This document shows positions 1-11,060 of a stretch of 11,060 bases of DNA, one piece after another. Position 1 is the first letter of the stretch. Every line of letters begins with the position of its first letter. The translations under genes were made by a program, and so were the position numbers. The DNA is from Pseudobacteriovorax sp. (lineage in GTDB: Bacteria; Bdellovibrionota_B; Oligoflexia; Oligoflexales; Oligoflexaceae), in the NCBI GenBank assembly GCA_050293845.1, contig JBNKNM010000191.1:1-11060 (forward strand), read 5' to 3'. The notes under the pieces were generated by a model. That model was not told the DNA's origin. It did no database searches and saw nothing but the letters and a program-made list of their open reading frames with translations.

Positions 1-77
1 GCGGGAGTAGCTCAGTTGGCTAGAGCGACGCGTTGCCATCGCGTAGGTCGAGGGTTCGAGTCCCTTTTCCCGCTCCA
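1..77 (+). tRNA. tRNA-Gly (anticodon GCC)
   Basis: Cloverleaf: acceptor GCGGGAG(1-7)/TTCCCGC(67-73); D-arm GCTC/GAGC; anticodon stem ACGCG(28-32)/CGCGT(40-44) with loop TTGCCAT, GCC at 35-37; T-arm GAGGG-TTCGAGT-CCCTT; discriminator T74 (typical of bacterial Gly); encoded CCA 75-77. Confidence 0.98.
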
Positions 78-221
78 AACTTCTTTAATCCTTAGATTAA
101 GTTATCTTTAATGTTCCTCTTCCGCCAGCTCATTTATTGCCCAGCCCCAGAAAAATCAATATGGTTGTTGGTAAATAGAGTATATATCACAAATTAATTA
201 ACAGAAACTCTAGAGCACTCT

Positions 222-1757
222 TTGCAGTATATTGACATGGGCGATTTTTTAAGAAAGCGATCACTCTCCTATAGGCTATCACTAGGTATCCTAATTGGAA
301 GCTCTATTATCACATTTTGTTTTAGCGTTGTAACCCTCTATTGGGATTATCGAACCGAGCTTCGCCAGATCGAGCAAACCCTGGATCAAGTACAATCTTT
401 ATACCTAGAGAGTATCAGTCAAAATCTTTGGAACATGAATGACGAAAGCATCAAGTTAAACCTGCAGAGTATTACCAGTTTAGGCGATATAAACTATGCT
501 CATATTTTGATTCAAGATAAAATAGTCTATTCTTCAGGGGATAAACTACCTCCTTCCAACCAGCAAAAAAAAATCTTCTCCATCAATTATCATCGTGATG
601 GTCGTAATTACCATTTAGGCGATCTTGTCGTTTCCGCAGATCTTGGCGGTGCTTACACACGATTACAAGAAGAAGTTCTGTACGAATTTGCCACTTCTTT
701 CTGTAAAACCCTTATTCTCTTACTTTTTATCCTAGCTTTTTTCCATAAGCTCGTAACCAGACACTTGATTCATATCGCTCACTATCTGTCTGAGTTTTCG
801 CCATCTACTAAAGATTTAGCGCTCTTCCGTAGGCCAGGAATCAGCGATGAGCTTACCATGGTGGTTAATGCAATCTCAAGAATGAAGCATGAGATAAATG
901 ACCAGCTGAGTAAACGACTGGAAGCTGAAGAGCAGCTAAAAGCTCTCAATATCAGCTTAGAGGCTGAAGTAAAAAAAAGAATCAAAGAAAATGAGCTTCA
1001 GCAAATGGCCATAGAAAGCACTGCTCGCCTCTCATCCTTGGGTGAAATGGCTGGTGGTGTCGCCCACGAAATCAATAACCCCCTAACAATTATTTATGGA
1101 TATGTAACCATGCTCCGTAAAGCGGTGGACAACAACAGTTTGAGCCCTGCAAAAATTGACCTGATCGTAGAAAAGATTGAAGTGACAGTCGATCGTATCA
1201 CGCAAACCATCGAAGGCTTACTCCGTCTGGCGCAAAACCAATGCGAAAGCCCTCCCCAAGTCCACTCCCTGAGCCTCATTATTAGAGACATATTGGCCAT
1301 CAGTCGGGAAAAGTTTACCCGCAGTGGTATAGAGATAAAACTAGATATCCCTGACTATGAAATAAAGGCTCCCTGTCAGCCGGCGGAAATTGGACAAATT
1401 CTGATTAACCTCCTTAATAACGCCTACTATGAAATTAAAGATAGGGGATCTCCTTGGGTAAAAATCACCCTAAAGGATACCCCCGATAACATGGCTGAAA
1501 TTGCTATTATAGATTCGGGTCCAGGGATAGAGACCAAAATACGAAGTAAAATTCTAAAGCCGTTCTTTACAACAAAGCCTCCGGGTAAAGGAGCGGGGCT
1601 TGGGCTTAGTATTTCCCAAGCTATCGCCCAAGGTCACCACGGGCAGCTTTATTTAGATGAATCTAGCAAACATACACGCTTTGTGCTCGCACTGCCTGCA
1701 GATATCTCAGCCATTCATTCCCCCCACAGTTTGTCCAATCAATTAAGCTTTCATTAG
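222..1757 (+). CDS. Membrane-bound sensor histidine kinase (2 TM, periplasmic sensor, HAMP-like/coiled-coil linker, HisKA, HATPase_c; NtrB/AtoS-like class)
   Basis: Two hydrophobic segments (LSLGILIGSSIITFCFSVVTLY; TLILLLFILAFF) flank a ~110-aa periplasmic region; DEL..VVNAISRM HAMP-like; H-box GEMAGGVAHEINNPL (His codon at 1065); N-box QILINLLNNA; G1 DSGPGI; F-box PFFTTK; G2 GKGAGLGL. Start may be TTG 222 or ATG 237. Confidence 0.95.
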   Translation: MQYIDMGDFLRKRSLSYRLSLGILIGSSIITFCFSVVTLYWDYRTELRQIEQTLDQVQSLYLESISQNLWNMNDESIKLNLQSITSLGDINYAHILIQDKIVYSSGDKLPPSNQQKKIFSINYHRDGRNYHLGDLVVSADLGGAYTRLQEEVLYEFATSFCKTLILLLFILAFFHKLVTRHLIHIAHYLSEFSPSTKDLALFRRPGISDELTMVVNAISRMKHEINDQLSKRLEAEEQLKALNISLEAEVKKRIKENELQQMAIESTARLSSLGEMAGGVAHEINNPLTIIYGYVTMLRKAVDNNSLSPAKIDLIVEKIEVTVDRITQTIEGLLRLAQNQCESPPQVHSLSLIIRDILAISREKFTRSGIEIKLDIPDYEIKAPCQPAEIGQILINLLNNAYYEIKDRGSPWVKITLKDTPDNMAEIAIIDSGPGIETKIRSKILKPFFTTKPPGKGAGLGLSISQAIAQGHHGQLYLDESSKHTRFVLALPADISAIHSPHSLSNQLSFH

Positions 1758-1884
1758 CATGATGGAGTTCATTCTCCCTATTCTATCTACTGAATTTCCA
1801 TCTCTCTTGTCGCCTTGAGATTGCAATATAAGCCATTTTAGGTTACTTAGTAATGGCAACTCTGAATGGATAGGAAGACTACGC

Positions 1885-2562
1885 ATGACTGATGCAAAAT
1901 CTTATTGGGAGCGATACTACGCTGAAAATAAATTTTTAAATGGCAAAGAACCAAACGCCTTCCTTGTCAAAATGCTTCCGCGTATGCAGAAAGGTAAGGT
2001 TCTGGATGTAGCCATGGGTGAAGGCACAAATGCTGTATACCTCGCCCAAAAGGAGTACAAGGTTAAAGGCTTTGATATTTCTAAAACTGCCATTGAGAGA
2101 TCTAAATCCCTCGCTCGGGAAACCGGAGTAGATATCGATGCAAATTTTGCCGACTTGGACTTGTTCTTGATGGGATTGCTGGAGTATGACTCCATTATTA
2201 TGACTTACTTTAAACCCACTGTTACCCGTTACTATAATTCGATCATCAGCGCACTCAAGCAGGGGGGAACTTTGCTGGTTCACTCCTATAGCAATGCAGA
2301 AATGACAGAGGCCATTGGGAAAGGCGAAGGCTACCGCGACTACTTTTTTTCCGCTAATGAACTGCTTCGGAACTTACAAGGTTTGCGCATTTTGTTTTAT
2401 CAGGAAGGCCTTATTGATGGGCATCATGTGGTACAGTGCTTAGCACAAAAACCGGTCGATAAAGACGCTGCAAAGTTAGGAATTTTCGACATGCATACAG
2501 CTGGTCATCGCGGAGAAAAATCAAAGCAATTGGAACTCGCCGAAAAGCTCTTTAAAAAGTAA
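1885..2562 (+). CDS. Class I SAM-dependent methyltransferase (TehB/Methyltransf_25-like)
   Basis: N-terminal YWERYY...GKEPN, motif I KVLDVAMGEGTNAVYLA, motif II VKGFDIS, YDSII, ALKQGGTLL; AGGA RBS at 1872-1875. Confidence 0.9.
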   Translation: MTDAKSYWERYYAENKFLNGKEPNAFLVKMLPRMQKGKVLDVAMGEGTNAVYLAQKEYKVKGFDISKTAIERSKSLARETGVDIDANFADLDLFLMGLLEYDSIIMTYFKPTVTRYYNSIISALKQGGTLLVHSYSNAEMTEAIGKGEGYRDYFFSANELLRNLQGLRILFYQEGLIDGHHVVQCLAQKPVDKDAAKLGIFDMHTAGHRGEKSKQLELAEKLFKK

Positions 2563-2575
2563 GTTAACAATCAGT

Positions 2576-2601
2576 GAGAGGCTCTATCCAACCTCTTTTT
2601 T
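2576..2601 (+). terminator. Weak candidate intrinsic terminator after the small methyltransferase
   Basis: GAGAGG(2576-2581)-10 nt loop-CCTCTT(2592-2597) running into a T tract to 2601; short stem, large loop. Confidence 0.35.
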
Positions 2602-2695
2602 AGGTGTGGCGGGAATTTTAAAAAAAATTGCAGAAAAACCTATTTTATAACATAGGGTTGGTAGCCTTTGTTTATCGCCCATTAGGAAAAATTAT

Positions 2696-5600
2696 ATGAG
2701 CAAGGATCTAAAACTTGGTAATCACTTTCTTTCCCAATGCAATACCAGTGCCTCAACGTATCAAGCATTTAAGCAGCTTCTTACACAACTCCAACAAGAA
2801 TCAAGCCGGCTGGAAGCCCATCAGACGTTAAAAGAGCTCCTGCTCATTCATGACTCTACCCTAGACCCCATAGGATTTAGTAAGCGCCACTTTTTTAGCT
2901 TCTATAATATCTCTTTGGCTCAAAATCAAAAACTAAAACTGCTCCAGTTCCCCAGTACTTTTACTCCTGAAGAATGGTCTTTCACATTTTATGAAGGTCT
3001 ATCTCGCTTTCCTATTAACGAATTCACCAACAAGGTCATAACTGAGCTAGGTTGCGGCAACGGATGGGTTTCCATCGCCCTAGCTCAACGTAGCCCCTTG
3101 AGTAAAATATACGGCTTAGATATCAACCCACGAGCTATAACTTGCGCCCAAATCAATGTTTTTCTTAACGGTATGGATGATAGCAGTTCTCCCATTAGAG
3201 ATGGTAGTGGACGCCCGCTATGGGATAAGGTTGAGTTTTATCATAGCGATTTGCTAGAAGCACTTAGGGAACGGAGCATTGGCCTAGACCTAGTTATCGG
3301 CTGTATCCCCCAAGTCCTAGCACCTGACCCTGACGCTCTTCTTGAAATTGTAACCGAATCTGCTTCCGATCAAGAACTGTACGATCTCTCTAATTATACA
3401 GAAGCACACGGATATATAGAAGATCAGTTTGGCCTCGGCCTGATAGCCAAAGCCACTGAAGAAGCTGTCCAGGTTCTTCATCCCAACGGCCGTATGATCT
3501 TTAACTTAGGGGGCCGGCCCGGAACAAAAGTCCTTGAGGGACTCTTTAAGAGGCGTGGTTTTACCGTAAAAAAAATCTGGAGTACACGGGTGGTACAAGC
3601 TGGTGATACTGAAATCGATGCGCTTGTCAAAATTGAAAAGAGCAGCCAGCATCGCTTCGAATTCTATATGGGTCCCAATGCCCAGGAATCTATTTCCGCT
3701 AAAACGGCGCAAGCTTTGCTTGCTGCGGGAGGAGAAATTTCTCACTCATTAAGTGTCTATGAAGCTTCACTCCCGGCCCATGAGCAAGTCGCTAATATAC
3801 TTCGCTTTTTAGCGAAACCGGAACACAAGAGCTTACATGAAGGCCTTGATTTGTCCTCAGAAGATCCTGAAGTCTATCAAGAGAGAGTAAATTTTTTGAG
3901 CCATCTGGCTTCATTTCTTGAAGACCGCAGCGAATTACCTTATGGAGAGACGCAGGGGCACTCAAGCCTGCGTCGGAGCATATCGCTATTCCTGCGAAGT
4001 TACTTCCGTTGCCCTGTCCAAAGTGAAAATATTTTTATCGCTCCTTCTCGGGCTGATGTGATTTCCAATATGATAAAGGTTTATGGGCCACAGGTTATTC
4101 TTTTTGATCAAAAATTACTATATGCGATCCAGGGCGATAGCGGAGTCGGATCATTACAAAATCTGTTTCCACAGATTCTAGAATCTCCCCAGCGTGTTGA
4201 TCTTCTCAAAGAACTCATACATCGCATCCGTCCTGACCTCGTTGTGACCTCCTTGAACAAATTCGAAAATGAATCTCCTGAGTTTTTGCGTCAACTATTC
4301 ATAGCGACGAAAGAATCATCTTCGCGACTGGTGCTAGATATGAGTGACTATTTTGACCTATCCAGTCAACCAACCACAAATGCAGCACTATCCCTTTTAT
4401 CGGAACAACATTTACCTTCTCATGTCACATTGATTTGCGGGCTTGTAAAAAATAAAGTATATGCCGACCTTCATTTGTGCTTTACCATCAGTGAAAATCA
4501 ACCCTTTTTCAATGACATGATTGCTGCGGCAGAATTAACATATAGTCGCGCTCCCCTGTTTACTCAATCATATTACCATAAAATATTTGATGATCTTCTC
4601 ACTTTCCATCTAGCAGATGCGCGGGGACTTGGGGTAGTAGAAAGGCAATTACAAAGTGATCAAAACCATAGTGAACTATCACCGGTTTCCCCCCATGTTG
4701 AGAAGGCATTTTTTCATCCAGCCATTGCAAGAGCAAAACTATCTCTAAATACCGCAACAATAAGATTAGATTATGGAGAAAACATACTTCCTATTCCTCG
4801 CATTCTACAAACCAGCATTTATGAGGCTTTTGTCCGTAGCGATATCTCTCTGACTGACTCGATGGTTAAGGATGAAATAATTCTTTATATGCAAAAAATT
4901 TTCAAAATCTTTCCTAAAGCTGATACTGAAGTATTTCAAGGATCTGGAGTAGCTCCGCTATTTGCCAATACCCTTGAAGGAATTTGTAAACAAGATAGTT
5001 CTCTGGTATTTCCCTCAGGAAGCTATGGAGAGTTTCACGCCACTGCATTATTTTTCGATGTTCCCATTATCAACTGCGAAACACAAGAGAGCAATTTCTT
5101 CAAATACTCCCCTAAGGCTCTACATGAATGCTTAACGGGCAAAAAAAATCCGTGGATTTTCTTGAACGCTCCCTGCGTTAATCCTACAGGAGCTTTATAT
5201 TCATCAGCTGAAATTGCTGAAATAATAGCTATAGCCAAGTCCCATGGTGCGGGTATTATTTTTGATGCCACATTTGCTGGTCTTGAATTTAATCCCAAAA
5301 ATGGGAATCTAGATCTTGATAACTTGTTCGATGACTCCTTCCCTTGGATATTCCTAATTGGGATTGCAAAACTGTTTGCTGCAGGAGGTTTACGGTTTGG
5401 AGCAGCCGTCACGAACTACCCTGACCTCAAGGAAGCTCTTTTTCGCAGCCCCTATCGCCCCCCTCACTTTACTGTTGCCTATGCCGCAAAACAGCTGTTT
5501 CAGAAATTACGATTGGAAAACCCCAACCTACAGGCATCTTTAGGTGAGCAAAGGCACACTCTTTGCAAAAGGGCTCAGCAACTTGAAGTGATGCTGAAAC

Positions 5601-5893
5601 AAAGCGGTTGGCATGTTATAGAACCCCAAGGCGGCTTATTTTTAATAGCCAAGCCAATATACTTTATCGGTAAAAATTGGCAATCTGCAAAAAGCAACGA
5701 AGCTTATACTATTGATAGTCAAAATATTGCCGAAATTTTATTCAAAGAAAAAAACTTACTCATTAACGGTAGCGATTGGACGGGGATCCCTGGATACTGC
5801 CGCTTCGTCCTCTCGGTTGAGCAGGAGGAGTTCGCAACCAGTCTTACACTGCTTCAAGAATTCTATCAGGAATTTAAAGAAAACGAGAACTAG
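2696..5893 (+). CDS. Full-length plant-type methionine S-methyltransferase (MMT): N-terminal MmtN-like SAM methyltransferase plus aminotransferase class I/II-like C-terminal region
   Basis: Collinear motifs that I recognise from plant MMT: PSTFTPEEWSFTFYEGL, ELGCGNGWVSIA (3044-), YGLDINPRA, VEFYHSDLL, GCIPQVL, EDQFGLGLIA, IFNLGGRPG, HRFEFYMG, ISHSLSVY, CGLVKNKVYADL, NPTG, PHFTVAYAAK, WTGIPGYCRF. Length 1065 aa is similar to plant MMT (~1070-1090 aa). AGGA RBS at 2684-2687. Confidence 0.93.
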   Translation: MSKDLKLGNHFLSQCNTSASTYQAFKQLLTQLQQESSRLEAHQTLKELLLIHDSTLDPIGFSKRHFFSFYNISLAQNQKLKLLQFPSTFTPEEWSFTFYEGLSRFPINEFTNKVITELGCGNGWVSIALAQRSPLSKIYGLDINPRAITCAQINVFLNGMDDSSSPIRDGSGRPLWDKVEFYHSDLLEALRERSIGLDLVIGCIPQVLAPDPDALLEIVTESASDQELYDLSNYTEAHGYIEDQFGLGLIAKATEEAVQVLHPNGRMIFNLGGRPGTKVLEGLFKRRGFTVKKIWSTRVVQAGDTEIDALVKIEKSSQHRFEFYMGPNAQESISAKTAQALLAAGGEISHSLSVYEASLPAHEQVANILRFLAKPEHKSLHEGLDLSSEDPEVYQERVNFLSHLASFLEDRSELPYGETQGHSSLRRSISLFLRSYFRCPVQSENIFIAPSRADVISNMIKVYGPQVILFDQKLLYAIQGDSGVGSLQNLFPQILESPQRVDLLKELIHRIRPDLVVTSLNKFENESPEFLRQLFIATKESSSRLVLDMSDYFDLSSQPTTNAALSLLSEQHLPSHVTLICGLVKNKVYADLHLCFTISENQPFFNDMIAAAELTYSRAPLFTQSYYHKIFDDLLTFHLADARGLGVVERQLQSDQNHSELSPVSPHVEKAFFHPAIARAKLSLNTATIRLDYGENILPIPRILQTSIYEAFVRSDISLTDSMVKDEIILYMQKIFKIFPKADTEVFQGSGVAPLFANTLEGICKQDSSLVFPSGSYGEFHATALFFDVPIINCETQESNFFKYSPKALHECLTGKKNPWIFLNAPCVNPTGALYSSAEIAEIIAIAKSHGAGIIFDATFAGLEFNPKNGNLDLDNLFDDSFPWIFLIGIAKLFAAGGLRFGAAVTNYPDLKEALFRSPYRPPHFTVAYAAKQLFQKLRLENPNLQASLGEQRHTLCKRAQQLEVMLKQSGWHVIEPQGGLFLIAKPIYFIGKNWQSAKSNEAYTIDSQNIAEILFKEKNLLINGSDWTGIPGYCRFVLSVEQEEFATSLTLLQEFYQEFKENEN

Positions 5894-5904
5894 CAATTCA
5901 TCGA

Positions 5905-5940
5905 AGAGGGGATACCATTGGTATCCCCTCTATCTTTTTT
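5905..5940. terminator. Intrinsic terminator between convergent MMT and htpG (possibly bidirectional)
   Basis: Perfect 12-bp stem AGAGGGGATACC(5905-5916)-ATT-GGTATCCCCTCT(5920-5931), T-run 5935-5940 on +; lies in the 45-bp gap between the two stop codons. Confidence 0.85.
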
Positions 5941-7861
5941 AAGAGTTTGTATGAGCCATAAGATTTGAAATTTGTTTAGAAAACTTTAATGGATCTTCAA
6001 TGGGAGATCCTTCTGTGAGCAAAGCCTGGTTGTAGAGAATTTCTGCCCATTCTTTCTGTGCATCCTCAGTAAGGCTTTGCATCTTTGTGAATACTGGATG
6101 ATCCGGATTGATTTCCATAATTCGTTTAGATTTAGGAACAGACTGTCCCATAGCTTCCATCATTCTTTCCATCCGCGCAGAAGGATCGTAAGCCCCTGAG
6201 ACTAAGCAGCAAGGGGAGTCAACTAACCGCGGTGAAATTTTAACTTCTTTTACGTTTGCTGCCACAGCACCTTTGATCGTTTCTAAGAGGGATTTATATT
6301 CTTTTTCTTTAGACTTAATATCCTCTTCGTTTTGCTTTTTTTCTTCCTCAGAATCCAGCTCCAAGCCTTCCTTAGTAATACTACGCAAGTGCTTTTCCTG
6401 GTATTGCGTCATAGACTGCATGACCCACTCATCAACAGGATCGATACAATATAAGACTTCATAGCCCTTTTGCTTTAATTTTTCTAAGTATGGGCTACAC
6501 TCCACTTGTTTAATGGATTCACCGGTAATGTAATAAATCTCTTTCTGAGCTTCCTTCATTCTTTCAACATATTCTCTTAACGTTGTTAAGGAATCTGTTT
6601 CATTGGAGTGAAAGAGTGCCAGTTCCTGAAGCTTATCTTTATTGCTAAAGTCATTAGCAATACCTTCTTTCAAGGTGGAGCCAAAGTTCTTCCAAATTCC
6701 CTCGTACTTTTCTCGATCCTTGCTCAGCATTGTTTTAAAGGTTTTTAGAAGCTTAGTTGACAAGGCTTTTTTAATACCTTGAATTTGTTTATCTTTCTGT
6801 AAAATTTCTCGAGAAACATTTAAAGAGAGATCGTTGGCTTCTATCACACCTTTAATGAATCTGAAATGCGGAGGAAGTAGTTCCTCACAGTGATCCATTA
6901 TGAATACCCTATTTACATAGAGAGATAGTCCCCACTTGGTGTCTCGATAATTGTAGTCCATAGGAACTTGGCCAGGAATAAACATCAAGGCCGTAAACTC
7001 TTGAGATCCCTCGGCTTTATAGAATATACGATCAACAGGTGGTACCCAATCATGGGTGACATGTTTATAAAATTCTGTATATTCGTCTTCAGTAACTTCT
7101 GATGGATCTCGCAACCATATGGCTTTACGGCTATTTAGAGTTTCGTCTTCGATAGTAGTTTTGGTTTTACCTTCTATAGGCTTACCATCCTTATCGAGTT
7201 CTGGTTCTTCCTTCGTTACTTCCATTTTTATAGGGAAGTCAATGAAGTCAGAATATTTTTTAACGGTGCTTTTAAGGGTCCATTCATCGGTAAAGTCCTG
7301 AGCTTCGTCATCATCTGGAAATGATTTCAAAAACAAAGTAATTTTCGTTCCCTGACCATCAGTACTTCCGGAAGCTCCTTCGATTGTATAAGAGCCATCC
7401 CCTGCGGATTCCCAGATAACCTTTTCCTGAGAGCCAGCTTTTTGGGTTTCAAGCCTCACTTTATCAGCAACCATAAAAGAAGAATAAAAACCCACACCGA
7501 ACTGTCCAATCAGATCAGGTGAATCCTTAAGTTCTTGAGATTTTTTTAGGAATTCCTTTGTACCAGAACGTGCAATGGTACCGATATTAGTTAAAACTTC
7601 TTCTTCGCTCATCCCTATTCCATTATCTATAATGGTAAGAGTTTTATTATTTTTATCAGGAACCAAGCGAATAAATTTGTCTTCGCCAGAAGTGCTGAGG
7701 TCAGCATTTGCAGCTTCTTCATATCTTAATTTATCTAATGCATCCGAGGCATTAGATATCAATTCCCTGAGAAAGATTTCTCGATGGGAATACAAAGAAT
7801 GTACCATAAGGTCCAGTATTTCTTTGACTTCAGCTTGGAATTGTTTGGTTTCTTTGGACAT
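5939..7861 (-). CDS. htpG: Molecular chaperone HtpG (bacterial Hsp90)
   Basis: FQAEVKEILDLMVHSLYSHREIFLRELISNASDALDKLR, DNGIGM, IGTIARSGT, IGQFGVGFYSSF, LNVSREILQ, EINPDHP. Start placed at ATG 7861 (MSKETKQF, 640 aa) because a GAGGG RBS precedes it; the ORF-track TTG at 7873 overlaps that RBS. Confidence 0.98.
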   Translation of the reverse strand: MSKETKQFQAEVKEILDLMVHSLYSHREIFLRELISNASDALDKLRYEEAANADLSTSGEDKFIRLVPDKNNKTLTIIDNGIGMSEEEVLTNIGTIARSGTKEFLKKSQELKDSPDLIGQFGVGFYSSFMVADKVRLETQKAGSQEKVIWESAGDGSYTIEGASGSTDGQGTKITLFLKSFPDDDEAQDFTDEWTLKSTVKKYSDFIDFPIKMEVTKEEPELDKDGKPIEGKTKTTIEDETLNSRKAIWLRDPSEVTEDEYTEFYKHVTHDWVPPVDRIFYKAEGSQEFTALMFIPGQVPMDYNYRDTKWGLSLYVNRVFIMDHCEELLPPHFRFIKGVIEANDLSLNVSREILQKDKQIQGIKKALSTKLLKTFKTMLSKDREKYEGIWKNFGSTLKEGIANDFSNKDKLQELALFHSNETDSLTTLREYVERMKEAQKEIYYITGESIKQVECSPYLEKLKQKGYEVLYCIDPVDEWVMQSMTQYQEKHLRSITKEGLELDSEEEKKQNEEDIKSKEKEYKSLLETIKGAVAANVKEVKISPRLVDSPCCLVSGAYDPSARMERMMEAMGQSVPKSKRIMEINPDHPVFTKMQSLTEDAQKEWAEILYNQALLTEGSPIEDPLKFSKQISNLMAHTNS

Positions 7862-7899
7862 TTTTACCCTCAAAAATGGAAAAGTTTCTCAGTATCTGA

Positions 7900-7928
7900 A
7901 TAATGAGTCCCCTTCTGGGATTGTCAAG
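7900..7928 (-). promoter_or_regulatory. Candidate htpG promoter (sigma32/RpoH-like or sigma70)
   Basis: Minus strand reads CTTGAC(7928-7923)-N15-CTCATTAT(7907-7900), resembling RpoH consensus CTTGAA-N13-17-CCCCATNT; it can also be read as TTGACA-N16-CATTAT. About 40 nt upstream of the htpG start. Confidence 0.55.
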
Positions 7929-8009
7929 TATCTGATCAAAAAAAGTCATAATAGATACATCTTGCATAAGTGTAAAAAATGATTGATTTTAACAGATTGC
8001 ACACAGTTG

Positions 8010-8038
8010 CGGTTTTACCGTAGGAAGCAGTAAAACCG
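8010..8038. repeat. Inverted repeat CGGTTTTAC-N11-GTAAAACCG (terminator-like hairpin or operator)
   Basis: Perfect 9-bp arms at 8010-8018 and 8030-8038, extending to 11 bp with one G-U on the minus-strand RNA; 27 nt downstream of the 85-aa ORF stop; no U-tract on the minus strand. Confidence 0.7.
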
Positions 8039-8065
8039 TAAAAAGAAAGGTCTCATGGCAAGATA

Positions 8066-8323
8066 TTATTCAGCGTGGGAACTATGTTTTTTTGACTGAC
8101 CAACTCCCATTACCATGGAAAACAAGGAATTCTCACTCTTGCGGTAAGGATTGATTTTACTTTGAAAGCGTTCTCCTGCAGTCATCTTTTCCGTATCATG
8201 GCGGGTGATGAACTCAAATAAGGGGCTGCGCGATCGGATGGGAGCAGATTGCTCAATTGATTTTTCGAAGGTTCCTGACTCATTTTCCACGACTTGCCTC
8301 CTAACCGCATCAAAAGTCAACAC
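8066..8323 (-). CDS. Small hypothetical protein (85 aa)
   Basis: ORF fills the gap between htpG and the DUF2225 gene, has protein-like composition and is followed by a hairpin; GTG start with no clear RBS; no family recognised. Confidence 0.5.
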   Translation of the reverse strand: MLTFDAVRRQVVENESGTFEKSIEQSAPIRSRSPLFEFITRHDTEKMTAGERFQSKINPYRKSENSLFSMVMGVGQSKKHSSHAE

Positions 8324-8457
8324 GAAATTACTGCATATTTTAGGCCACTTCCCTTTAATACCTCTGGTTTATTATAATCGCACCGATAGCATGAGAGAAG
8401 GATTAATAGAAAGTTAGTTTTAATCCAAGACTTTACGCCATAATAAGGGCCCTGTTC

Positions 8458-8501
8458 TTAGTATTTTAGCTAACTTACCGAAAAAATCCTATGGGTATAA
8501 T
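8458..8501 (+). promoter_or_regulatory. Candidate promoter elements for the DUF2225-like gene
   Basis: Perfect TATAAT at 8496-8501 with a weak -35; overlapping sigma28/FliA-like TTAG(8458-8461)-N15-ACCGAAAA(8477-8484). Confidence 0.3.
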
Positions 8502-8530
8502 CATCACAAATCATTTTTGAGGAATCTCGT

Positions 8531-9622
8531 TTGGGCACAAAAGTCATCGTTAATTCCTTTCAGCAATTAACAATATCTTGTCCCTTATGTGAGATTGAGG
8601 ATACTCATCATAGGATCAAACCTACTTTATATCGAGAAACCAGTCGCGATATCGATCTGCGCCCAAAGTCTGTAGACTGGAACCCCAAAGCCTCTCCCAA
8701 AGTAGATCCCAAAGTATATTTTTTTTGGAAGTGTAATCATTGTCATTTTTGCTCCGACCAAAAGAGCTATATTACTCCCTTTGCAGAAGGTATTATGAGC
8801 GCCGTTCGCTTTAGAAAGCTCTTAAAACCAGCTTTGGAGCAAGATGCGGCCTATATGGAACTGAAAGAACTACTCGCTCCCCAGGACGAAGACAAAACCC
8901 CGCAATTCGTTAAAGCGATGCGCCGCTGTTTTTTGGCCATCTATCAGCATGAGGCTGTTGAGGAAATTGCCATTAAGGAGAGCCTAAAAATTGGCTCTTA
9001 TTACCTCCGGCTCGCATGGATGATACGCGATATCAAAACCTCAAAAACAAAGGCTAATTTATACAAATTGCCCACCCGGGAGTTACTACGTCAAACTAAA
9101 AGGATATGGCCTTCCCTCCCCATAACAGAACTTTCTATTGTCCAACGCGCCATAGAATATTATACCCGTTCGCTCAAACAATCCCATGCCATAAAAACTA
9201 CACTCTCGGAAATCCAAATCAACTTGGTGATTGCTCGTATGTACTTACAAATAGGTGAACTGAAGTCGGCTCACCATCTGTTGCTAGAAAATCGAACCCG
9301 TGCAAAAAATTATGAACTAATCGTAAAACAAAAAGAAAAGTCAGCTAAACAAGGTGATAGTGAGATAGATCAGATGTCAATGGATGCAAGCAAAGCGGTA
9401 AATTCAGTAAGAAACGTGTACCTTATCTACGAACATCTCGATCAAATAAGGTTTAAAAAGGAAGTGGACCAAGCTTTGAAGTTTTTTATACAAGAGGAAC
9501 TTGGCAAAAAGGAAATCACTGAACAGCGGGACTCCCTTAAGAAAAAAGGTTATGAAGAAGAGATCATCGATAAGATTGCCCCTATTCAGAAGAAAAAAGG
9601 GATCTTTGAGTTTTTAAAATAA
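8531..9622 (+). CDS. DUF2225-like protein (N-terminal Zn ribbon plus TPR-like helical domain)
   Basis: CPLC ... RDIDLRP ... VDPKVYFFWKCNHCHF zinc-ribbon pair and YYLRLAWMIR motif typical of DUF2225; TTG start with GAGGA RBS at 8519-8523 (7-nt spacing). Confidence 0.8.
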   Translation: MGTKVIVNSFQQLTISCPLCEIEDTHHRIKPTLYRETSRDIDLRPKSVDWNPKASPKVDPKVYFFWKCNHCHFCSDQKSYITPFAEGIMSAVRFRKLLKPALEQDAAYMELKELLAPQDEDKTPQFVKAMRRCFLAIYQHEAVEEIAIKESLKIGSYYLRLAWMIRDIKTSKTKANLYKLPTRELLRQTKRIWPSLPITELSIVQRAIEYYTRSLKQSHAIKTTLSEIQINLVIARMYLQIGELKSAHHLLLENRTRAKNYELIVKQKEKSAKQGDSEIDQMSMDASKAVNSVRNVYLIYEHLDQIRFKKEVDQALKFFIQEELGKKEITEQRDSLKKKGYEEEIIDKIAPIQKKKGIFEFLK

Positions 9623-9672
9623 AGTTGACCTCCTTCAGTATTTACTTAGTACTGTGCAGCCTTAAGCAAAGG

Positions 9673-9681
9673 TTATCCACA
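9673..9681 (+). promoter_or_regulatory. Perfect DnaA box
   Basis: TTATCCACA, exact consensus; single copy, 4 bp upstream of a TTGACA hexamer. Confidence 0.5.
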
Positions 9682-9685
9682 CATC

Positions 9686-9714
9686 TTGACACACCACTTA
9701 ATTCAGCGCATACT
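9686..9714 (+). promoter_or_regulatory. Candidate sigma70 promoter
   Basis: TTGACA(9686-9691)-N17-CATACT(9709-9714): perfect -35, optimal spacer, 4/6 -10. Confidence 0.5.
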
Positions 9715-9902
9715 AGGCTAAGTACTCATTTATTTTTAGTGGCTTATAGAAAAAAATGACCTACACAACTCTGTCGAACATACTATCACTCCCTCCACAG
9801 TTACAATATCCTTTAATAACAGATAGTTAAGACCTACTATGCGCTAGATTATTCTGTTACTGTCCATATTTTAGTACTCTCTTAGCCTATTGACCCATGA
9901 AA

Positions 9903-9915
9903 TATCAATAACTTA
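9903..9915 (+). promoter_or_regulatory. IHF binding site
   Basis: TATCAATAACTTA matches WATCAANNNNTTR exactly and lies at about -53 to -41 relative to the predicted sigma54 start, the usual position between enhancer and promoter. Confidence 0.75.
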
Positions 9916-9929
9916 ACAAAGGCAGTTTT

Positions 9930-9945
9930 TGGCAAGACCTTTGCT
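9930..9945 (+). promoter_or_regulatory. sigma54 (RpoN) -24/-12 promoter
   Basis: TGGCAAG-ACCT-TTGCT versus consensus TGGCACG-N4-TTGCW; GG at 9931-9932 and GC at 9943-9944 have exact spacing; predicted +1 about 9956. Confidence 0.85.
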
Positions 9946-9955
9946 TTAACATAAG

Positions 9956-10155
9956 CACAGGCAAAATATAATCTTCAAAGTTACAAGGCTGGATGCCAAG
10001 ATCTAACATGATGTTGATCTTTGAAGGTTATTTGCTAAATAGCATAATACTAGTGGGATTTATTCCACTGATCTCATAGGTAAACCCCTGTGATGTTTCG
10101 CTCCTCACTCTTGCGGGACCACCTTTTTTCGGAAAAGGTGGCCTTGTTTTTTTTT
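9956..10155 (+). ncRNA. Putative sigma54-dependent small RNA (~200 nt), family not recognised
   Basis: Bounded by the sigma54 promoter and a strong terminator, with no credible ORF. Helices: GCAAA(9961-9965)/TTTGC(10031-10035) plus TAATCTTCAAAG(9969-9980)/CTTTGAAGGTTA(10019-10030); TAGTGGGA(10051-10058)/TTCCACTG(10063-10070); TCATAGG(10074-10080)/CCTGTGA(10087-10093); unpaired CU-rich 10096-10112; terminator. G-U pairs in all stems favour the + strand. Confidence 0.7.
10115..10155 (+). terminator. Intrinsic terminator of the putative sRNA
   Basis: CCACCTTTT(10119-10127)/AAAAGGTGG(10133-10141) stem, extendable by GG/CC, followed by a 9-T run at 10147-10155. Confidence 0.9.
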
Positions 10156-10244
10156 GGGGAGAAAATTATTTCCTTGTACCAGAAGCTGCTAACAACTTTC
10201 TGGATCATAACATGTGACATGCTCTCGCGACTGAAGGTGAAACT

Positions 10245-10284
10245 AAAAAAACAACCCGGCTATAAAAAATAGCTGGGTTGTTTT
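10245..10284 (-). terminator. Intrinsic terminator for the minus-strand lipoprotein operon (possibly bidirectional)
   Basis: AAAACAACCCGGCTAT(10248-10263)/ATAGCTGGGTTGTTTT(10269-10284), one imperfect pair; A7 at 10245-10251 gives a U-tract on the minus strand, 42 nt after the stop at 10327. Confidence 0.85.
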
Positions 10285-10326
10285 CAGCATGTATAGAAAA
10301 CCTCTAGACTTAGAAATTCTTTTCTT

Positions 10327-10809
10327 TCAAAAGGTAAAAGAAAAGAAACTAATATGAAGATTAAAAAATTCTTCTGACATTAAATCGCCCATATTCTCCA
10401 TAAAAAACACCTGGCAATCCTCAGACCGCAAGTCTGCAGATTCAGAATATACAACACGGCTTTTAGGGCTCAAAGTTAACTCGCTTGATATGTTTGCTGA
10501 AGAAAAATCTCCTCCCGGCCATACCATCAGACAGCGCCCTTTTTCAGTCTCTCCTAATGCGCTGTCGCCTCCATTTATCTGTAACAAATCGATCTGCGAA
10601 CGTAGCATGATAGCAGCCAATGCATCCCCACCGTCTCCTTCTTTCAAATCATCCACTTGTGCCACAACTGATGAAAAGGCTAACTGAGTCCCTGCAGACC
10701 CCGCAGCTACTTCTTTCTTTTGAATCTGGGGAGCGCTTTCAAAAATATTGCTTCCACAACTTAGAATCAAGCTAGATAGTACTGCTATGCAAATATATAA
10801 ATGCTTCAT
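10327..10809 (-). CDS. Hypothetical lipoprotein (160 aa)
   Basis: Signal peptide MKHLYICIAVLSSLILS-C18 with lipobox-like ILSC followed by GS; GAGGA RBS upstream (10818-10822, minus strand); two further Cys in the mature part; no family recognised. Confidence 0.8.
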   Translation of the reverse strand: MKHLYICIAVLSSLILSCGSNIFESAPQIQKKEVAAGSAGTQLAFSSVVAQVDDLKEGDGGDALAAIMLRSQIDLLQINGGDSALGETEKGRCLMVWPGGDFSSANISSELTLSPKSRVVYSESADLRSEDCQVFFMENMGDLMSEEFFNLHISFFSFTF

Positions 10810-10826
10810 CTTTTTCTTCCTCTAGC

Positions 10827-11060
10827 TTAGTTAGTGACTCGTTTTTGATAGATAATTGTCTCATTCTGAGAGCAGGTGATCTCACCCTGGGAAGAAAACA
10901 CCATGGGACCTATGATATCGCAGAATTTTTGACATTCTCTTTGACTGGAAACGCTTGCATTATAGAATACTTGAGAACCTGTCGCGGTCTGCCTCCCCAA
11001 AGAGCAGGACGTTGTCCCACTAAGATTCATATCATCAACTTTATCAAATGCAATGAGCTT
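10827..11060 (-). CDS. 3' end of a hypothetical protein with a 4-Cys C-terminal segment (partial; starts outside the window)
   Basis: Frame stays open from 11030 to the window edge (...KLIAFDKVDD-MNLSGTTSC...); ends 17 nt before the lipoprotein start, consistent with an operon. Confidence 0.7.
   Translation of the reverse strand, partial: KLIAFDKVDDMNLSGTTSCSLGRQTATGSQVFYNASVSSQRECQKFCDIIGPMVFSSQGEITCSQNETIIYQKRVTN

Follow-up and report, generated by a model that had tools for sequence, protein, structure and literature searches.

The window analysed here is an 11,060-nt stretch of genomic DNA from Pseudobacteriovorax sp. (contig JBNKNM010000191.1, positions 1 to 11,060). It carries htpG on the minus strand (5939-7873), a DUF2225 gene on the plus strand (8531-9622), and a minus-strand gene for a predicted lipoprotein of 160 aa that belongs to no Pfam family (10327-10809). 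The lipoprotein gene serves as a syntenic marker of the locus; the DUF2225 gene, upstream of the RNA gene described below, and htpG, which lies beyond it, provide syntenic context only. The gap between the DUF2225 gene and the lipoprotein gene contains just three short open reading frames (ORFs) of 44-60 aa and, as its sequence indicates, very likely holds a gene of about 200 nt for a predicted regulatory RNA under the control of sigma-54. Upstream of htpG, positions 222-5893 encode a CHASE5 histidine kinase, a small methyltransferase, and a fusion protein of 1065 aa whose methyltransferase-like N-terminus is followed by an aminotransferase domain; the order kinase, methyltransferase and htpG was found again in one relative.

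A sigma-54 -24/-12 promoter element, TGGCAAGACCTTTGCT, is located at 9930-9945 on the plus strand, with the GG at 9931-32 and the GC at 9943-44, which places the predicted +1 near 9956. From the -12 GC and from a downstream T-run, a primary transcript of ~200 nt is predicted at 9956-10155 on the same strand. Its variable 5' domain (9968-10044) consists of a long composite hairpin (9968-10031) and a small hairpin (10033-10044). Two more hairpins in the single-sequence fold (10051-10070 and 10074-10093) lie 5' of the proposed seed, a 20-nt block, ATGTTTCGCTCCTCACTCTT (10093-10112), which is invariant among four genomes except for one Y position and which includes the anti-Shine-Dalgarno-like CUCCUCACUCUU (10101-10112). 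The RNA ends at an intrinsic terminator (10119-10155), a stem-loop at 10119-10141 followed by T9 at 10147-10155, evident both in the sequence and in a terminator scan. The lipoprotein gene, which comes next, is convergent. A separate terminator serves it on the minus strand at about 10243-10283, a hairpin and T-run read in the sequence; a simple terminator scan did not have this one in its list, and the hairpin is visible in an Rfam-match alignment. The only ORFs of at least 40 aa that touch 9956-10155 are 10090-10272 on the plus strand and 10074-10220 on the minus strand, and neither is conserved. A preliminary description, made from the letters alone, had read the promoter, the strong T9 terminator, the convergent neighbour and the lack of a credible ORF in the same way, and all of these points held. 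With no conserved ORF, a terminator of its own and no same-strand gene downstream, the element has the features of a non-coding small RNA (sRNA) and is neither the leader nor the riboswitch of a downstream gene, as had been proposed.

The preliminary description had also suggested a comparison across related genomes. A BLAST search with 9880-10170 against 40 relatives returned three matches, all confined to window positions 10083-10170, and comparison of the matching regions showed that the 3' part of the RNA and the promoter recur in four syntenic loci. The carriers, all from uncultured bacteria, are four of the 22 family genomes, namely the window's own (G000), G001, G002 and G005. These four genomes share one plan, in which a -24/-12 element is followed by an unalignable stretch, the invariant block ATGTTTYGCTCCTCACTCTT and a terminator. 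Promoter, block and terminator are thus conserved at four syntenic loci, and it is this conservation that makes the promoter, the terminator and the absence of an ORF in the preliminary description credible. All four RNA genes are situated between htpG and a gene pair encoding the lipoprotein and an S8 subtilase. The immediate upstream neighbour varies, being the DUF2225 gene, a VCPO-like gene, htpG itself or an RND operon, so that the element does not belong to one conserved gene as its terminator or leader. The orthologs of the lipoprotein are only 33-40% identical while the RNA block is invariant, and no RNA-like element was found beside the distant lipoprotein homologs of four further family genomes. 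The RNA gene and the lipoprotein gene converge in three genomes out of four, across a gap of about 170-290 nt. Such an arrangement would suit a cis-acting element whose transcription or terminator interferes with, or insulates, the convergent lipoprotein/subtilase operon, the RNA product itself being unimportant. We consider this highly improbable, because both units possess their own terminators and do not overlap, because the block is unchanged in the fourth genome, where the RNA gene lies inverted and an RND efflux operon stands between it and the lipoprotein gene, and because interference would have no need of an invariant 20-nt block.

A covariance model built on the 3' domain of the RNA was used to search 131 class genomes and 22 family genomes. 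The four carriers, the window included, scored 78-101 bits, and the best non-carriers reached at most 28 bits among the class genomes and 30.3 bits among the family genomes. Nine weak matches at class level were rejected, as none passes a check by the strict promoter pattern, and the weak matches for which 500 nt upstream were read (six at class level and six at family level) were judged by eye to be gene-end terminators or coding sequence. No TGGC-N7-TTGC was present within 300 nt upstream of the weak matches that were read; one of them has a 9/12 promoter match at -488 and an 8/12 match at -208, in what appears by eye to be coding sequence. A pattern scan of 185,579 species representatives yielded two records, metagenome-assembled genomes (MAGs) of Oligoflexus sp. 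and Pseudobacteriovorax sp., and two metagenome scans yielded 0 and 12 stretches, none of which fits the full model, the best being a partial match of 16.5 bits. No second copy was found in the window's own genome. This distribution is credibly that of a conserved, sigma-54-promoted family of predicted non-coding RNAs (ncRNAs) limited to a small clade of Oligoflexia. Among the weak matches of the covariance model was a stretch of about 300 nt that is nearly identical at two loci (L022 and L025) in two species from a different family within the order; it lies 3' of a gene, contains CUUCUCC, ends in a terminator, and may from its sequence be another unannotated RNA.

The invariant block opens with an ATG at 10093. 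In each of the four genomes this ATG starts a frame that crosses the block, and the resulting peptides are similar over their first 6-7 residues. The locus could on this basis be an mRNA for a small protein beginning MF(C/R)SSL, a reading that we regard as extremely improbable. The peptides would be 13, 20, 27 and 59 aa long with no likeness beyond the block, no Shine-Dalgarno (SD) sequence lies within 20 nt 5' of the ATG in any of the four genomes, in three of them the stop codon comes only after the T-run, and the three codon positions of the block are equally invariant. On the minus strand no frame is consistent across the genomes. The four loci thus have no coding potential. Known RNA families did not account for the element either: within the RNA there was no match at the gathering level of Rfam 15, whose sole such match in the window is a tRNA at 1-74, and the best plus-strand score in 9956-10155 was that of suhB/mmgR (17.8 bits against a gathering threshold of 41, E = 0.58), which falls on the terminator. 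The Rfam search is in line with the earlier statement that the sequence was not recognised as any of the Qrr, GlmY or Pxr families.

In the window, the sigma-54 pattern occurs once against 0.08 expected, and at least one match arose in 16 of 200 shuffles. Genome-wide, TGGCA-N6-TTGCW gave 67 matches compared with 42-65 at other spacings and is not enriched. TGGC-N7-TTGC is enriched outside long ORFs, with 91 matches compared with 17-44 at seven other spacings, and shows no excess over other spacings inside ORFs. Most of the 91 intergenic sites lie from a few to a few hundred bases 5' of an ORF, and the consensus of these sigma-54-like sites of the genome itself, TTGGCATAnnCTTTGCTTA, is one that the window element fits. 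In addition, rpoN is present in all four RNA-bearing genomes, which encode 21, 14, 21 and 14 Sigma54_activat domains, the window's own genome having 21. The intergenic enrichment, rpoN and the 21 activator domains together indicate that sigma-54 promoters of this type are used in this organism. The three orthologous loci have the -24/-12 elements TGGCAAGGGCTTTGCT, TGGCCTGGCACTTGCT and TGGCAATCGCTTTGCA, so that TGGC-N7-TTGC is found at all four loci, 127-270 nt 5' of the invariant block. The DNA between promoter and block, and that 5' of the promoter, cannot be aligned among the four. By a rough estimate from the genome-wide density (334 matches per 13.4 Mb of strand), the chance of finding TGGC-N7-TTGC within 300 nt at every one of three further loci is <1e-6. 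Since it occurs 5' of the same conserved RNA at all four orthologous loci, the promoter stands above chance.

A different explanation is that there is no gene, with silent -24/-12 matches and with a block and hairpin that serve as a conserved terminator or as a DNA site bound by a protein. The lack of genome-wide enrichment of TGGCA-N6-TTGCW fits this explanation. We give it only a very slim chance, as the promoter recurs at every locus at a variable distance, the upstream gene is a different one at each, and the sequence between promoter and block is strongly structured in all four genomes. As judged from sequence, the predicted sigma-54 dependence put forward in the preliminary description is supported by a correctly spaced -24 GG/-12 GC element that is placed to drive the RNA and kept at all four loci, and by rpoN and 14-21 enhancer-binding proteins encoded per genome. 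The -12 region (9937-9946) also forms a perfect 10-nt inverted repeat, AAGCAAAGGT / ACCTTTGCTT, with a site 263 nt upstream (9664-9673), which could be due to chance.

Upstream of the promoter, an exact match to the integration host factor (IHF) consensus, TATCAATAACTTA, which fits WATCAANNNNTTR, lies at 9903-9915 on the plus strand with its centre at -47 from the predicted start. The site is present as the preliminary description had it, but a functional role for it, as stated there, did not find support; its position is not conserved and its frequency is that of chance. The window holds two consensus matches against 1.10 expected, and two or more were found in 67 of 200 shuffles. Two of the four orthologous upstream regions have an exact consensus, which lies at -47 in the window and at -219 in the ortholog; the remaining two have none in the 400 nt upstream. 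The window site and that of the ortholog share the 13-mer ATCAATAACTTAA, a length of 13 being reached in two of 200 shuffles. Each of the four RNA-bearing genomes has 4-9 matches to the HU/IHF family, and the best himA scores (103-105 bits) are below the equivalog cut-off of 120.25.

Neither shared k-mers nor inverted repeats revealed an activator motif common to the four upstream regions. Within 310 nt 5' of the promoter, TWAGTACT, which holds the palindrome AGTACT, occurs three times (9646-9653, 9719-9726 and 9871-9878). For the whole window these three copies compare with 0.58 expected, and at least three were found in eight of 200 shuffles. An inverted repeat, CTATTGA-N11-TCAATAA, with 7-nt arms and one mismatch, spans 9887-9911 and overlaps the IHF-like site. 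By their sequence, the TWAGTACT copies are candidate activator sites and the inverted repeat is a possible site for a regulator or activator; the orthologous upstream regions showed no such copies, and in none of the three was the repeat found, which is specific to this genome, so that neither is conserved. For the three genomes whose contigs are long, no gene for an enhancer-binding protein is present within 10 kb on either side of the RNA gene. The best-scoring such gene of the genome shares a contig with the RNA in three genomes, at 22-58 kb from it, which is too far to have much meaning.

The predicted 200-nt RNA folds with -62.9 kcal/mol (z = -4.97), and none of 200 shuffled sequences folded as well. 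Across the four orthologs, in which the RNA is 150-295 nt long, fold z-scores range from -3.5 to -5. Instead of the three stem-loops of the preliminary description, the minimum free energy (MFE) fold comprises about five local hairpins and the terminator. As to conservation of the stems and covariation, which the same description had put forward as a check, covariation is minimal; the terminator stem carries a compensatory change, and the hairpin that would display the seed is broken in two genomes. Pairing in helix 3, in the terminator, is complete (100%), and two of the four sequences share one double change there, from UA to CG; covariation was judged on four sequences only, which have no statistical power, and the terminator alone shows any. 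A hairpin stands at the equivalent place before the block in every ortholog, its sequence differing from one to the next, with just 75% of the cells of helix 1 paired in the four-sequence alignment. In the single-sequence fold, a weak stem made mostly of G-U pairs (10095-10101 with 10113-10119) closes an 11-nt loop that holds the block. In the consensus fold, the block is unpaired, with a small hairpin on its 5' side and the terminator on its 3' side. The invariant block is accessible in both of these predicted folds.

Within the block lies CUCCUCA, which is complementary to the SD-like UGAGGAG. A base-pairing seed would be expected to look like this, with an invariant segment near the 3' end that follows a structured 5' body of variable sequence, and it may be freed by processing. 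In the model that we infer, from transcription and start site through activator and pairing mechanism to targets, RNA polymerase with sigma-54 would transcribe 9956-10155 from the promoter at 9930-9945 and would stop at the intrinsic terminator at 10119-10155. The promoter being of the sigma-54 type, the RNA would be made solely while an enhancer-binding protein is active. Its functional part would be the block AUGUUUYGCUCCUCACUCUU, exposed as a loop or single strand directly before the terminator, which would pair in trans with the SD regions (UGAGGAG-like) of one or more mRNAs and lower their translation. The variable 5' hairpins would probably provide stability or be processed away. Hfq (PF17209) was detected in none of the four RNA-bearing genomes, which are 94-96% complete, and control genomes matched as expected; since the Hfq gene was not detected, the pairing would be independent of Hfq, and the usual chaperone route would not be open to it. 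We infer the anti-Shine-Dalgarno mechanism through CUCCUCA, because the searches yielded neither an activator site nor a conserved mRNA target, and by analogy it is the most likely option. The whole account, a stand-alone sigma-54 ncRNA gene acting by trans pairing with SD regions, is in our judgement reasonably probable.

Scans of the four genomes for 13-mer and 14-mer complements gave no conserved target site. A duplex-energy scan of 5712 putative initiation regions in the one genome covered in full, which makes the target search a weak negative, gave a minimum of -31.7 kcal/mol for the real seed. In a subset of 3000 regions the real seed reached -28.6, compared with -28.7 to -33.4 for six shuffled control seeds, which is the level of background. 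The three best target candidates were examined and rejected, all because their complementarity is lost in orthologs; by eye they are an ATP-grasp type protein of 483 aa, a CoaBC-like protein of 391 aa and a GHMP-type kinase of 338 aa. Among the neighbouring genes, the genes for enhancer-binding proteins and rpoN, none stands out as a target.

With mRNA targets neither above background nor conserved, the RNA could be real and driven by sigma-54 and yet bind or titrate a protein or another RNA through the block, as a decoy or sponge of the GlmY/CsrB type; GlmY acts by protein sequestration. The failure to detect Hfq would suit such a role, as would an invariant stretch of 20 nt, which is more than most seeds require. 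We nevertheless consider it unlikely, since the RNA has no repeated protein-binding motif, the block occurring once per RNA, since the CU-rich content of the block is typical of anti-SD seeds, and since no partner protein gene is linked to the RNA gene. Under a broader form of the pairing model, this Hfq-less Oligoflexia clade would run a small set of sigma-54-gated riboregulators, which may include two or more unrelated families in which an invariant, CU-rich 3' block follows a 5' body that varies, and the CUCCUCA RNA would be a general competitor for SD-led mRNAs. General competition is conceivable because CUCCUCA resembles the anti-Shine-Dalgarno sequence of 16S rRNA, and it would account for the lack of a single conserved target. 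Translation would then be broadly reprogrammed when one enhancer-binding protein fires, in place of an effect on a few specific targets. We hold this broader form to be quite improbable and retain trans pairing with the SD regions of one or more mRNAs as the preferred reading.

The Qrr RNAs of Vibrio are trans-acting RNAs of about 100 nt that depend on Hfq; they are transcribed with sigma-54 and the activator LuxO, and have an intrinsic terminator and a conserved pairing region within a variable remainder. The window RNA resembles them in its sigma-54 promoter, its intrinsic terminator and its conserved block with a variable rest, and differs from them in that RNAs of the window type are 150-295 nt long, Hfq was not detected in their genomes, and no Rfam family, Qrr included, was matched. 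The principle is not new, sigma-54-dependent sRNAs being established in Vibrio, enterobacteria, Campylobacter, Burkholderia and Desulfovibrio. Excerpts of the respective reports describe Vibrio Qrr as a sigma-54-dependent sRNA (PMC10162802) and GlmY/GlmZ of Enterobacteriaceae as sRNA genes with sigma-54 promoters (PMC3045617). The GlmY/GlmZ type of promoter is the source of the IHF-plus-activator model of the preliminary description; here, there is no match to GlmY/GlmZ in sequence or structure, the position of the IHF site is not conserved, and no activator sites were found. RpoN-dependent sRNAs with known targets are likewise described, in excerpt, in the flagellar cascade of Campylobacter jejuni (PMC11187230) and as NcS25 of Burkholderia cenocepacia (PMC10117139). 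These examples place single sigma-54-controlled base-pairing sRNAs in several phyla; the organisms are unrelated, and the excerpts offer no tie to the window RNA. For Desulfovibrio vulgaris Hildenborough, four sigma-54-dependent ncRNAs are reported, their function being given in the excerpted text as 'posttranscriptional regulation' (Kazakov et al. 2015, PMC4641369). In the same text, they are named by the adjoining gene, which in two cases is their own activator gene (DVU0653 and DVU0679). As far as that description goes, the likeness to the window RNA lies in stand-alone genes behind sigma-54 promoters in a free-living former deltaproteobacterium that has many enhancer-binding proteins, and the difference is the absence here of an activator gene within 10 kb. 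A search of titles and abstracts found no description of an sRNA of Oligoflexia or of bacteria of the Pseudobacteriovorax/Oligoflexus type, and nothing relevant on Bdellovibrio sRNAs with RpoN. Given this result and the lack of an Rfam match, the window RNA would constitute a new family among sigma-54 sRNAs.

Several further intergenic sigma-54-like promoters with no ORF start within about 390 nt are present in the genome, for example on contigs C50, C209, C142, C124 and C8. A crude scan found no terminator 3' of them, and they could represent false positives, long leaders or more RNA genes. One of the 91 intergenic sites, TGGCATAGCGCTTGCT, stands out as a second orphan sigma-54 promoter; it is located in the window's genome on the minus strand of contig C23, at about 25,138-25,354 (L129 1514-1731), with a strong terminator about 180 nt 3' of the promoter and no ORF between the two. 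The window locus and this second locus would be the first sRNA candidates for Oligoflexia. They would offer a handle on which of the 14-21 enhancer-binding proteins feeds post-transcriptional control and, with Hfq undetected in the carriers, on base-pairing RNAs that work without it. Beyond the terminator, the C23 candidate cannot be aligned with the window RNA. Its 3' half is kept in two of the same relatives, where -24/-12 elements, TGGCACAGGCTTTGCT and TGGTACAGCCTTTGCT, lie about 90-100 nt upstream, and its conserved core, GATGTTCCCT...TCCCCTA, is CU-rich.
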